A stretch of DNA of 64,000 nt from a virus (IMGVR_UViG_3300012920_000028:8805-72804), one strand, 5' to 3'; positions 58,106-61,468 are shown, counted from the stretch's first letter. Made by a program: numbers and translations. The notes: generated from the sequence alone by a model not told the origin.

Positions 58106-61100
58106 TCAGTAGTAAATCCACGAAACCCCATTCTTGTCGGTCTTGATTTTCCATGCTCCGTCCTTGATGACGAGCATCGGTTTCCCCTTGTCAGGAACGG
58201 TCATGTACAGTTTGGGCTCCTCAAAGGTGCGGCCGGTTTCCTCGTCCACACCGAACTCGTGAATGTACTTTTGGTCGTCTCCGAAGCCTTCCTTCCCGTT
58301 CCGGTAGCCGATTGACCAGCAATCGCCAAGATAGACGAGCATGCCGCCGAAATCCACCTTCTCAGTTCGAACCTCCTTCGGGTCCTTGCCGTTGAAGTCC
58401 TTGTAGGCCTTCTTTGCCTTGTCCATCTTCTTCTGGCTCGGCGGGTTCTTCTTCGCCCTTGGGTTCCTCTTTTTCCCCTCGTCCCTCATCTTTCCGATGA
58501 ATTCCCTTGGGTAAAGGAAAGTGAAACTGATGGAAGAGACGGGGTCCGGCAGGCCATCGGCCCCCCTCCCATCACCTTCGATTCGGATGTTCACCCAAGT
58601 CGACGGCGGGTACATCTCCGACATGCGCCTCATGATTTCTTGCCAGCGGAGGCCGGCCTTATTTAGACCAAAATCGAATACCTCCATGAACGCTTTAACC
58701 GCGGCGGGGTCTTCCAATAGGACCTCGAACTCTGCATCCTCTGTCCGCGCACGTCGAGCCTCAAACATCATTAGATGCATCAATTCTTCGTCGATGTATT
58801 CCTTGCAAGCCTCGGTGAGACGCTGGTCAAAAATCTCTCTGAGGGCACGCATTTGCTTGGGGACTTCTACCTCTGCGTCAAAAGGCGCGTTCTTCTTCGG
58901 CCTTGGGTTCGCGTAATTGACTGACAGTTCATAGCCGTCTCCAGCGGGCTCAAGAACCACGGATGCGACGTTGGAGTATCGTTCCCCCCTGTATTCGACC
59001 CATTCAGCAGGGCCACCTCGATAGTAGAAGGTGAAGACGCCTTGGCCGGTACGAATCATGTTGACCTTCCGCCCGGCAATCCTCAAATTGTTCTGCCTTT
59101 CATCTTGCCCGAACTTGGTCCCCCTCGAATCGGTGAAGAGGTTGCTCTCTTTCCTCCTTCGGAAAAATGGCGCGTTCTTCATCGGTTGGTTCTTTCGCTG
59201 CCAATCGTGAGAGGTCTCATCAGAAACGATGGGTCCACCGGCTGCCCATGTGTAGCAAGTGCGGGCCGAATGGCATTTGAAATGGTGCATCCAGCAGTAG
59301 CCCAACTCCCCCTCATCGTCTGAGGTCTTTCCGGGCATACAGTCCTTCATGCGAGGAGAAATGTCGAAAGCGACGCAGATGCTACAATTGGATTTCTTGG
59401 CGACTTCCGGGGTGGTGCCCCACTTCTCAGAGTAGCGCAACCAGTAGGCGGCGTCGCTGAGATTCAGGGGGCCGTATTGGATGTGTTCCGCATCAATCGC
59501 GGCGTCACGGTTCCGTGTGTTGACTTTGAGGTCTTGAGTTGCAAGCGGGCAAGACATCGCTGGGTTCCTTCTGGTACCCCACGTCTTCGTCACGGAGTCC
59601 ACACCGCGCTTCCCGTATTCCTTCTCAACGTAGGAGAGGGCCACCTTGACTCGCTGGTCGTTTCGGGGGAACTCCTCGTTCATCTTCTTGTTCGAAACGA
59701 GGCGCTGGAAGTAGTTCTTCGCAGACTCCTTTCGCTTCTTCCCCGTCTTCTTGTTGGTCTGCCGGCGAGGCTTGACGGGTGGGTTCACAAGTGAACGAGA
59801 CTTCAGCCGCTCGTTTATCAGATTCATCGCCTCCACCGTGGGTTCTCCCGAGTAGCCACGAAGCAGTGGAACTCTGTCGTACCCGTCACTCGTGGAAAAC
59901 CACGCATCCTTTTCAGGATGGTAGTATAAATCGCCCAAGTCGTCGTAGGTCATGAGGTGCGGGTTATCCCAGTACTCCCACTCCGACATCCCTCGGAAGT
60001 AGTCTTCCTTGTTCTCCTCTTGGACGTCGTCCATAACGACGTCCCAATCTTGTTCTTCTTCATCGAGAGTCAATTCCACGACACGGTCTGCTTCGAGAGG
60101 ACTCTCGAAAGCCGTAATTTCCACCATGTCGTTTTCGAGGGCTGCGACCATAGAGTGAGCAGCAGGGACGGTCCCTTCGACTTGAGCCGGGATGGACAAG
60201 TCAACTGAAACGGGGCCTTCGGGGGTGTCCATGGAAACGATGATTTCGTCCACCACTTGTCGCAATTGGGTCATTTCGCCTTTCAGTTCTTCGGTTTGAG
60301 CACTCATTTCCTGACGACGAATCTTGATGTCGCGCCTCCTTTGAATCGCCTCGAGGACCTTATTTCCGACCCATCCAGCAACACCAGTAAGCGAAACACC
60401 CGCAATAACCGACATTGGGTCAACCGGTCTGTTCGCCCGCAGGTATTCGGGGCGTGTGGATTGGCTCAATTTCATGGCCTTCTGCAACTTGCTGATGTCC
60501 GTCAGGTTCTCCTCATGGGACACCGCAAGTTCACCCTTGTGGAGTTGGAGGTCAACTGTGCTCTTCCCTTCGAATTGTGCCTTCTCGATTTCCATATCAA
60601 GTTCTTCGAGGCGCGCGAGAATCTCTTCGTTCTCCTTCTTCAGTTGCTCAATTTTGGAACCCGCGGCTTCTTCACTTTCGATGCGCCTGCGGGTGGAATC
60701 AAGGGTGGAGTTCGGCAGCGGGCCGTAGGTGATACAGGGGTCCTGACCACAACCGCAGTTCTTCTTCCCGGTTGGGTTCGTCAAGGTGTAGGAACCGGGC
60801 GTTGGCTCAGGGCGGAGTCCTGAGAGAGTGTAAGAACCGGGCGTTGGCTCAGGGCGGAGTCCTGAGAGAGTGTAAGGGCCGGGAGAAGCAGGGGGGGCGA
60901 GGTAGGGGTTTGCAGGGGCACCGATGTAATCCTCGACCGAAGAATAGGCTGCAGGGACCATCATCTTCCGAGCGTCACGGAAGCCCGGACCGAAGTAGTG
61001 CGTAATCGTGTAGGTGCTGCTGTAGCGGTTGAGGGCCGCTTTGTCGCTACCCATGAAGACGAGAACGCCCGAGTCGTCGTGAGAGAGGGGAAGGGCGAGA

Positions 61101-61468
61101 GAGCGAAGCATGTCCGTGACCTTGCTCTTGTCGCTCTCGGGGAAATCCGAAACAAAGGCGACGAGAGCACCTTGCCGCTGAGAAAGACGAGAAAGGAAGT
61201 CCTTCGCGTTTGGGCGGGCCTTGAACGTGTTCATGTAGTCGCGGAGGACCTTCTTGGCGGCCCTTCCCTTCTTCTTCTGACGCCGTGCGATGCGGTGCGC
61301 CGGAGACATGTCCACCACGGACTCAAGATTCACGACGATGAGTTTTTTCTCACCGTAAATGGGAGTGTTCTTCGGGGCGGGGTTAGTCCGGGGAAGGCTT
61401 GCGCCACATGTCGTGCAGCAAGCCGCTCCGAACACGGAACGAGTGTTGCAAGCCGGACATTCAGGCAT
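58106..61468 (-). CDS. Second modular polyprotein (Zn ribbon, degenerate HAD-like, coiled coils, Cys-rich and basic modules)
   Basis: GGAGGTG RBS before the ATG at 61468. Modules are separated by NP/NAP motifs. Confidence 0.8.
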   Translation of the reverse strand: MPECPACNTRSVFGAACCTTCGASLPRTNPAPKNTPIYGEKKLIVVNLESVVDMSPAHRIARRQKKKGRAAKKVLRDYMNTFKARPNAKDFLSRLSQRQGALVAFVSDFPESDKSKVTDMLRSLALPLSHDDSGVLVFMGSDKAALNRYSSTYTITHYFGPGFRDARKMMVPAAYSSVEDYIGAPANPYLAPPASPGPYTLSGLRPEPTPGSYTLSGLRPEPTPGSYTLTNPTGKKNCGCGQDPCITYGPLPNSTLDSTRRRIESEEAAGSKIEQLKKENEEILARLEELDMEIEKAQFEGKSTVDLQLHKGELAVSHEENLTDISKLQKAMKLSQSTRPEYLRANRPVDPMSVIAGVSLTGVAGWVGNKVLEAIQRRRDIKIRRQEMSAQTEELKGEMTQLRQVVDEIIVSMDTPEGPVSVDLSIPAQVEGTVPAAHSMVAALENDMVEITAFESPLEADRVVELTLDEEEQDWDVVMDDVQEENKEDYFRGMSEWEYWDNPHLMTYDDLGDLYYHPEKDAWFSTSDGYDRVPLLRGYSGEPTVEAMNLINERLKSRSLVNPPVKPRRQTNKKTGKKRKESAKNYFQRLVSNKKMNEEFPRNDQRVKVALSYVEKEYGKRGVDSVTKTWGTRRNPAMSCPLATQDLKVNTRNRDAAIDAEHIQYGPLNLSDAAYWLRYSEKWGTTPEVAKKSNCSICVAFDISPRMKDCMPGKTSDDEGELGYCWMHHFKCHSARTCYTWAAGGPIVSDETSHDWQRKNQPMKNAPFFRRRKESNLFTDSRGTKFGQDERQNNLRIAGRKVNMIRTGQGVFTFYYRGGPAEWVEYRGERYSNVASVVLEPAGDGYELSVNYANPRPKKNAPFDAEVEVPKQMRALREIFDQRLTEACKEYIDEELMHLMMFEARRARTEDAEFEVLLEDPAAVKAFMEVFDFGLNKAGLRWQEIMRRMSEMYPPSTWVNIRIEGDGRGADGLPDPVSSISFTFLYPREFIGKMRDEGKKRNPRAKKNPPSQKKMDKAKKAYKDFNGKDPKEVRTEKVDFGGMLVYLGDCWSIGYRNGKEGFGDDQKYIHEFGVDEETGRTFEEPKLYMTVPDKGKPMLVIKDGAWKIKTDKNGVSWIYY
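60786..60883. repeat. In-frame 42-bp tandem repeat, about 2.3 copies (YTLSGLRPEPTPGS)
   Basis: Units begin at 60786, 60828 and 60870. Confidence 0.9.

Follow-up and report, generated by a model that had tools for sequence, protein, structure and literature searches.

Several viruses with double-stranded DNA (dsDNA) genomes encode a protease that divides large precursors at short motifs: pp220 and pp62 of African swine fever virus (ASFV) are cut at GG-X, and the core precursors of adenoviruses and poxviruses are processed in a similar way. Few endopeptidases cut on the N-terminal side of proline, and retroviral proteases belong to these few. The polyvalent proteins of mobile elements join unrelated domains in one chain, show extreme domain mosaicism between relatives and include an embedded zincin-like metallopeptidase that is predicted to process the protein, according to the available part of their description (Iyer et al. 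2017, PMC5512222). Here we analyse a window of 64,000 nucleotides, that is, bases 8805-72804 of the 72,804-base IMG/VR virus record IMGVR_UViG_3300012920_000028 (rated 52% complete by CheckV), with emphasis on P0001, a mosaic open reading frame (ORF) of 1120 amino acids (aa). P0001 is one of three giant ORFs of the window in which the dipeptide Asn-Pro (NP) is in excess. The NP signal proved genuine and specific; it is conserved, and it delimits exchangeable modules. Whether it also marks processing sites of a protease in mosaic polyvalent polyproteins, the reading that we put forward as the best supported, is in our judgement an even call.

Compared with ASFV, adenoviruses and poxviruses, this element likewise has dsDNA, an FtsK/HerA-family ATPase, large precursor-like proteins, a motif at each junction and a protease gene. 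It differs from them in the motif (K/R-x-N-P rather than G-G-X or A-G-X), in the candidate enzymes (retropepsin-like or JAB-like, not a clan CE cysteine protease) and in the modules, which are enzymes and not shell proteins, no capsid being known. With retroviral Gag-Pol it shares a protease of about 115 aa carrying DTGA...GRD and a Pro right after the conserved junction residue; unlike in Gag-Pol, the residue before Pro is Asn in a basic or polar context rather than an aromatic or hydrophobic P1, and the protease is encoded by a small gene of its own, outside the polyprotein. The features of polyvalent proteins recur here in both the joining of unrelated domains (HAD-like, guanylate kinase, DNA ligase, JAB-like and Cys-rich domains in this set, NUDIX and YbjQ domains in homologues) and the mosaicism (PMC5512222). 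By contrast, Pfam reports no zincin family here, a JAB/MPN+-like module being found instead; a conserved junction motif is present, of which the accessible text of PMC5512222 describes none; and the element is archaeal-type, in which, apart from the FtsK/HerA-type ATPase, genes for a virion or for conjugation were not recognised.

Results

NP is enriched in the giant multi-module ORFs

Genes were called with our own longest-ORF heuristic and are uncurated. The start of P0001 at 61468 (MPECPAC) matches the N-termini of eight of nine aligned homologues; the longest frame begins at 61687. P0001 gave no meaningful family match in Pfam or PHROGs, and the ten ORFs neighbouring it gave no PHROG match. 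The nine NP contexts listed by an earlier, sequence-only reading of the window are all present in the translation (RTNP at residue 29, PANP 187, LTNP 231, WDNP 502, LVNP 562, RRNP 635, YANP 854, KRNP 1002 and KKNP 1008), as are its near-variants among the NxP sites (NRP 346, NQP 760, NAP 765 and NAP 860). These nine sites compare with a mean of 3.09 in 20,000 shuffles of P0001 (P=0.0027), whereas the reverse dipeptide PN occurs twice, and NP has the highest observed-to-expected ratio among the dipeptides seen at least five times. An excess was also found in the 1896-aa protein (14 NP versus 5.6 expected) and the 1135-aa ligase-domain protein (5 versus 1.9), the latter a weak member of the set, so that the three giant ORFs together hold 28 NP versus 10.6 expected and 9 PN. 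The remaining 39 called ORFs hold 32 NP versus 29.5 expected and 28 PN.

Four relatives of the window from the IMG/VR collection, G001 to G004, share with it the ATPase and the JAB-like module described below, which makes five records with the window. G001 is 140,336 bp long, carries direct terminal repeats, is rated 100% complete, has a guanine-cytosine (GC) content of 45% and is collinear with the window. Its five giant ORFs, at 116-138 kb, hold 8, 8, 8, 5 and 17 NP versus 3.2, 2.6, 3.1, 2.8 and 5.6 expected (46 versus 17.3 in total), and NP is not enriched outside them. Observed and expected numbers in G003 ORFs were 14/4.2, 7/3.6 and 10/5.3. As a control, 59 ORFs of at least 700 aa at other viral loci showed no excess (153 NP versus 129.8 expected; 159 PN); the exception among the other viral loci screened was the NP-rich ORFs of L002, later recognised as a relative (G004). 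The density of [KR]xNP is 3.4-3.6 per 1000 aa in the polyproteins versus 0.28-0.44 elsewhere.

These results show that NP enrichment is confined to giant multi-module ORFs. The counts do not support the proposal of a use throughout the late region: the sites quoted for it are present (KRNP where the ORF ending at 25209 begins, IVNP following the Met at nucleotide 42825, RPNP at the end of a 660-aa ORF, and IQNP, RMNP and KKNP after the ligase domain), but NP in these other proteins does not rise above chance. A terminal propeptide site in such proteins was also considered and rejected, as four of the six non-polyprotein [KR]xNP sites of the window lie within 14 residues of a terminus but none of nine does in G001. 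One of the four is probably upstream of the true start, and the terminal NPs of other window proteins are neither enriched nor conserved.

The junction signal is longer than NP

The residues around NP are position-specific. Among 106 NP sites of 11 polyproteins, K or R occupies position -2 in 52 (background 14%) and position -3 in just 4; at -3, V is enriched 3.3-fold and P 2.9-fold, and P stands at +2 in 29. The pattern was replicated with 382 sites in 73 database proteins, where K/R reaches 55% at -2 and 3% at -3 (background 15%), S and N are favoured at -1 and tandem copies of the motif 3-5 residues apart are frequent. The junction signal is thus [P/V]-[K/R]-x-N-P, longer than NP; in a wider form it reads [P/V/A/T/I]-[K/R]-x-Asn-Pro, often followed by P, A, S or G and often doubled. 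A basic residue preceding NP had been noticed before; it does lie nearby, but at -2 and not at -1.

Of the 28 NP sites in the window's giant ORFs, 25 use AAC for Asn, like the background, and all four Pro codons occur. The motif persists across a shift in GC content from about 56% in the window to 45% in G001. The varied Pro codons and the survival of this shift indicate that selection acts on the peptide, and a signal at the DNA level was rejected on the same grounds, together with the background-like use of AAC. As a separate observation, the Pro codon CCA is over-used: it is found at 12 of the 28 sites but makes up 18% of the Pro codons of these proteins overall.

NP sites lie at the boundaries of exchangeable modules

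A search of 5.8 billion proteins with P0001 returned 27 matches, one of them a full-length copy, 98% identical. The other 26 share pieces that make up 11-31% of P0001, at up to 96% identity, and the mapped pieces define the blocks 1-351, ~561-642, ~638-761, 748-862 and ~1003-1120. Among the seven block boundaries with at least four ends of high-scoring segment pairs, four lie within 6 aa of NP (187, 562, 635 and 1002/1008), two are at the NxP variants 346 and 760, and one (820) has neither. When all 25 boundary clusters are taken, seven are within 8 residues of NP versus 3.3 at random (P=0.033). One boundary pair is exact: residues 347-561 are missing in P0003-P0007 precisely between N346 and N562, leaving the junction EYLRA-NPP-VKPRRQ. 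All ten sequences of an alignment keep N231-P232 and N562-P563, and conservation reaches at least 90% for N29 and N635, whereas the flanking modules differ.

The AlphaFold2 (AF2) model of whole P0001 is poor (mean predicted local distance difference test score, pLDDT, 45.5) and usable only for residues 1-27, 39-182 and 564-630. Its low-confidence gaps (28-38, 183 onward, 550-563 and 631 onward) coincide with NP 29, 187, 562 and 635.

The largest polyprotein is organised in the same manner. NP708 and NP898 enclose the guanylate kinase (716-877), NP1240 stands ahead of DUF3140 and NP1570 ahead of DUF7831, and NLPRPNP occurs twice (1689/1719) between DUF7831 and DUF5824. NP is kept in 17 of 26 aligned ortholog cells of this protein, where overall conservation is 34% for N and 49% for P. 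In L002, the guanylate kinase, DUF3140-like, DUF7831, ligase-like and JAB-like domains and modules C and E are redistributed among other giant ORFs, and the block edges again carry NP. A stand-alone 193-aa gene of the window (43129-43710) corresponds to an NP-flanked module in L002. Taken together, these results bear out the earlier suggestion that NP is a junction signal between modules.

The modules of P0001

The modules that had been read from the P0001 sequence are real, including the Zn ribbon, the HAD-like domain lacking DxD, the repeats, the long helices, and the basic, Cys-rich and C-terminal modules (Table 1). The four cysteines of the Zn ribbon (C4, C7, C18 and C21) are invariant across the ten aligned sequences, and its pLDDT is ~73. 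The HAD-like domain is modelled with a pLDDT of ~85; its homologues bear PF03767 and the family profile matches the acid phosphatase 2i33 (E=2e-8). However, DxDxT is absent from the P0001 domain, which has VVNLESVVD where relatives have FDLDKTLFD (N-L-E for D-L-D), and judging from these residues it is probably inactive. The repeat unit in the block at 60779-60877 (minus strand) reads YTLSGLRPEPTPGS. P0002, 98% identical to P0001, is 14 aa shorter and its later NP positions are shifted by 14, which is consistent with one repeat copy fewer. Residues 564-630 of module B have a pLDDT of ~80, and seven Cys and three His are invariant in module C.

Table 1. Features of P0001 and of the other giant ORFs, the ATPase gene and the candidate proteases in the window (residue numbers in brackets unless given as nucleotides)
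Feature	Coordinates	Strand	Remarks
P0001	58106..61468	-	mosaic multi-module ORF, 1120 aa plus stop (coding 58109-61468)
Module 1, Zn ribbon CxxC...CxxC (4-21; module 1-27)	61388..61468	-	then LPRT-NP (29-30; nucleotides 61379-61384)
Module 2, HAD-like fold without DxD nucleophile (39-182)	60923..61354	-	ends ahead of NP187 (nucleotides 60905-60910)
14-aa tandem repeat block (198-230)	60773..60877	-	terminates in invariant N231-P232 (nucleotides 60773-60778)
Variable insert (346/347-561)	59786..60433	-	coiled coil and acidic region, NP502 inside; edges N346-R-P and N562-P-P
Module B, basic N-terminal stretch and helices (562-636)	59561..59785	-	between invariant N562-P563 and N635-P636
Module C, Cys/His-rich (637-759)	59192..59560	-	then NQP-MK-NAP (nucleotides 59168-59191)
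Module D (768-853)	58883..59167	-	ends NPRPKKNAP (854-862); 748-862 common to P0007
Double junction NPRAKKNPP (1002-1010)	58439..58465	-	immediately upstream of module E
Module E, conserved C-terminal domain, fold unassigned (1011-1120)	58109..58438	-	C-terminal in 69/72 proteins
Largest polyprotein, 1896 aa	44898..50588	-	guanylate kinase, DUF3140, DUF7831 and DUF5824 bracketed by NP
JAB/MPN+-like module (111-312 of the 1896-aa protein)	49653..50258	-	flanked by NP110 and NP313; candidate processing protease
Ligase-domain protein, 1135 aa	50560..53967	-	
FtsK/HerA-type ATPase, 284 aa	43707..44561	-	directly downstream of polyprotein block
Retropepsin-like aspartic protease ORF, 115 aa (ALCDTGAS ... 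VIIGRD)	39562..39909	+	second candidate; in gap between minus-strand genes

Module E closes a family of NP-rich proteins

Among 1.84 billion proteins, module E was found in 123 cluster representatives, 86 of them at E<=1e-10. For the survey we retained the 77 of the 123 rows that had one full-length stretch (E <=~4e-11), setting aside three proteins that were known beforehand, a repeat protein and fragments, and then removed five with fewer than 45 upstream residues, which left 72. NP is present at most 30 residues upstream of module E in 71 of these 72 proteins, and in 69 no more than 6 residues follow the module. The bodies upstream of it are highly variable, from 95 to 1466 aa, and together these N-terminal bodies contain 407 NP versus 101.3 expected, 93 PN and 218 [KR]xNP.

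An alignment query for module E found nine loci in IMG/VR, where a single-sequence query found none. Module E had no match in GenBank phage records and no usable match in the ESM Atlas, and a pattern scan for it in 185,579 species genomes gave no match, hence no host link. NCBIfam has nothing for modules C and E.

Module C also occurs outside giant proteins

Module C is widespread in viral contigs, being present in at least 599 IMG/VR stretches. Among the matches listed, it forms a small ORF (at most 340 aa) in 37 of 41 distinct contexts; one 2811-aa ORF among these contexts carries it with NPP on both sides. In GenBank phage records it was matched in two, labelled 'high potential iron-sulfur protein' (HiPIP; OQ999401). 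This label was not confirmed, since a 27-sequence profile retrieved no HiPIP from the PDB at E up to 10.

Two further occurrences were observed. P0018, a database protein of 1126 aa from an unrelated virus, has module C fused ahead of an S78 prohead protease and an HK97-type capsid domain. In phage DSL-LC01 (OQ999401) the module C protein is flanked by a 3290-aa ORF on one side and capsid maturation proteases on the other, a head-module position. The tailed-phage context that these two cases suggested was rejected, as caudoviral families are absent from the records searched.

Two candidate proteases

The search for a co-occurring protease that the sequence-only reading had proposed was productive: a JAB/MPN+-like module is present in all five related records, within giant ORFs, and a retropepsin-like ORF in two of the five.

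The residues E...HTHP...S..S.DD of the JAB-like module (E49, H86-T-H88-P, S95, S98, D100 and D101) are invariant in all five records; the His-to-Ser spacing differs from the x7 of canonical JAMM proteins. The AF2 model of the module has a pLDDT of 88.4. The top Foldseek rows were mostly JAMM proteins, namely PfJAMM1 (probability 0.98), Rpn11, CSN5 and RadC, all at E >=0.015, and VIA likewise returned JAMM proteins (Rpn11, Cap3 and AMSH) with Z of 6.3-7.6, under the caution line of 8, over 104-134 residues at a root-mean-square deviation of 2.9-4.8. Against the NCBIfam desampylase the module scored 14.5 bits (E=0.024; cut-off 130). Some P0001 homologues (P0009-P0012) carry their own HTHP...S..D module between NP sites, which suggests that the JAB-like module also moves among different polyproteins.

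The retropepsin-like family was revealed by a scan of 63 G001 ORFs; the G001 homologue is 112 aa long. Against PF13975 (cut-off 28.2) the ORFs score 29.6 bits in the window record (G000) and 38.4 bits in G001, and both conserve DTGA and IIGR[DN]. Among 14 homologous clusters, PF13975 was recognised in all and PF13650 in 12. Scanning IMG/VR with the protease alignment recovered G001 only, and the ORF had no match in GenBank phage records. A predicted complex of the P0001 segment 985-1024 with a pair of retropepsin-like chains scored 0.24 versus a mark of 0.32, and was counted neither for nor against binding. A 63-aa ORF at 39348-39539 (plus strand) precedes the retropepsin-like ORF and, by eye, looks like a ribbon-helix-helix regulator.

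Discussion

Proposed processing at the NP junctions and its alternatives

P0001 belongs to a cluster of giant, mosaic polyvalent proteins and is a string of independently folding, exchangeable modules. We propose, as the most likely role of the motif, that it would be the recognition and cleavage site of an element-encoded protease releasing the modules separately; the cutter would be the retropepsin-like protease or the JAB/MPN+-like module, and the C-terminal module E might act as a common targeting or anchoring tag. In this proposal it is the cleavage, the bond cut, the acting protease and the passage of products into a particle that we infer.

Several points weigh against it. No cleavage products have been seen. 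A cut at NP29 would free only a 28-residue Zn ribbon, which is odd as a functional product. The excess does not extend to ORFs that are positional neighbours (883 aa in the window; 1079 aa in G003, with 0 NP versus 2.0 expected), and none of ten aligned ortholog cells keeps NP at the five sites of the ligase protein. As regards the enzymes, retropepsins prefer hydrophobic P1/P1' residues and JAMM enzymes Gly-Gly, and the motif resembles neither. The retropepsin-like ORF is found in two of five records, the other three being 45-76% complete, and is not syntenic between G000 and G001, where it adjoins MCM. The JAB-like module has middling structural scores (Foldseek E >=0.015; Z <8) and no Pfam JAB match down to E=5. 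For some JAB relatives, RadC among them, a nuclease rather than a peptidase role has been proposed, as stated in the accessible part of PMC5512222.

The strongest alternative, to which we assign a clearly smaller though still substantial probability, is that the motif is an uncleaved linker signature, in which a basic residue, an Asn cap and a rigid Pro insulate neighbouring domains, so that cassettes carry their linkers with them and the proteins work intact. NP sites do lie in low-confidence, Pro-rich segments between folded parts, and module shuffling is extensive; the 28-aa first module is easier to understand if it stays tethered than if it is released, and some polyvalent proteins are delivered unprocessed, at least in the part of PMC5512222 available. 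However, composition alone leaves unexplained why K/R peaks at -2 with depletion at -3, NP is at least three times as frequent as PN and stays invariant while the linker residues vary, and ordinary large viral proteins show no such pattern. The varied Pro codons, with the motif kept through the 45%-56% GC shift, point the same way.

It is less probable, and in our view unlikely, that the motif is a short linear docking site read by a partner (the FtsK/HerA-type ATPase, a thermosome-like chaperonin or module E) for loading, unfolding or translocation. A regular, position-specific context with frequent tandem copies would suit such a site, the cluster is followed immediately downstream by the conserved ATPase in every relative searched, and module E behaves like a tag, always C-terminal on variable bodies. 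Yet these partners are candidates only, a docking motif is not required to sit at boundaries, and we found no precedent in the literature.

Autocatalytic Asn-Pro scission, in which the Asn side chain would attack its own carbonyl to give a succinimide and no protease would be needed, as in the RsgI periplasmic domain, reovirus mu1/aquareovirus VP5 and proteins with the FlhB-type NPTH, appears still more unlikely. FlhB is also cut at Asn-Pro (NPTH), and Asn and Pro are the two invariant residues of the motif. The same conserved dipeptide is the exact bond cut in RsgI and in mu1/VP5, in the portion of PMC10328401 consulted here. In those cases, as far as that portion goes, there is one fixed site in a dedicated fold, whereas the present proteins have up to 17 linker sites; the known cases need a folded environment, but the four NP sites next to confidently modelled segments (29, 187, 562 and 635) fall in low-pLDDT gaps, the neighbouring residues vary, and the K/R conserved at -2 and the P/V at -3 suggest that an external factor recognises the site. 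Finally, chance, a compositional artefact or 2A-like ribosome skipping is hardly credible: the excess in P0001 is modest (P=0.003, uncorrected for 400 dipeptides), the permutation over all boundaries gives P=0.033 only and there are two NPGP sites (one at residue 335 of the 1896-aa protein, the other in P0037), but the excess recurs in relatives and is 4-fold in 72 independent cluster representatives, and NPGP is found at none of the nine P0001 sites, with no D(V/I)ExNPGP context.

Nature of the element and other genes of the window

FtsK/HerA-type ATPases serve in DNA packaging in tailless jelly-roll viruses and also in conjugation. The ATPase of the window matches DUF87 (E=2e-6) and is present in all four relatives searched, at 31-53% identity. 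The earlier idea of internal virion proteins in a tailless virus found no support, in that no capsid, portal or terminase family was detected in the five related records, of which one is complete. The records searched lack HK97 capsid, S78 protease, large terminase and portal (PF05065, PF04586, PF03237 and PF04860) and also the nucleocytoplasmic large DNA virus capsid PF04451.

Two further proteins were observed near the polyprotein block. A 355-aa protein (41782-42849, minus strand) contains Arg/Lys/Thr-rich repeats over ~170 residues (RRRKAPARRKTT...), after which its C-terminal half is hydrophobic and rich in Gly and Ala; from its composition it looks like a protamine-like DNA condenser with a membrane-like tail. 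A 204-aa protein (38581-39195, minus strand) without a family match is 86% identical in G001, by far the best conserved between both genomes, and is a candidate structural protein. The ends of the G001 terminal repeats map inside a stretch that is continuous in the window (39200-43100), and the homologues of 38581-39195 and 43129-43710 are at opposite ends of G001; the genomes of the window element and of G001 may be permuted or end at different places.

The gene set is archaeal-like. The RNA polymerase (RNAP) subunit is closest to archaeal Rpo1N/A' and the chaperonin to archaeal thermosomes; a family B polymerase and a serine recombinase (10887-11780, minus strand) are present, and G001 additionally encodes MCM and an archaeo-eukaryotic primase. 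The largest RNAP subunit is split in many archaea; the homologue at 1360-6186 (plus strand) is a single chain of 1608 aa over Rpb1 domains 1-5, its best PDB matches being to archaeal Rpo1N/A', and no second-largest subunit was found among the ORFs scanned. Adjacent genes for paralogous N6/N4 DNA methyltransferases (14292-15209 and 15210-16619, plus strand) are 48% identical over their N-terminal parts.

Magrovirus group D has been described with an archaeal-like family B DNA polymerase, a thermosome, a resolvase and RNA polymerase subunit A, in the available parts of PMC5434244, PMC10160649 and PMC11706807. In 2017 it had no closed genome and no morphogenetic block (PMC5434244), and later accounts present it as lacking a major capsid protein and possibly plasmid-like (PMC10160649, PMC11706807), again as far as the accessible text goes. 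Judged by gene content alone, the present element of roughly 140 kb fits this description, with its archaeal-like gene set, marine source and want of a recognised morphogenetic block. Unlike in 2017, a complete genome with direct terminal repeats is now at hand in G001, and the giant NP-punctuated ORFs, the ATPase and the proteases go unmentioned in the accessible parts of the three accounts. We tentatively suggest, as a possibility that falls well short of probable, that group D elements carry five giant ORFs beside the ATPase, comprising dozens of enzyme modules that would be cut at the motif by a retropepsin-like or JAMM-type protease, with module E loading the cargo into a non-caudoviral particle or transfer apparatus.

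Significance

If true, this would be a polyprotein strategy for which we found no description in dsDNA viruses of archaea. The junction motif gives an exact, testable prediction of the points at which the giant proteins would be divided and names two candidate enzymes. The density of [KR]xNP together with module E offers a simple handle by which metagenomes may be searched for such cargo proteins. The motif occurs in an abundant marine archaeal element whose standing as a virus, a plasmid or something else has been open since 2017, and the polyprotein block, the FtsK/HerA-type ATPase, the Arg-rich protamine-like protein and the retropepsin-like protease point to a module for morphogenesis or transfer.

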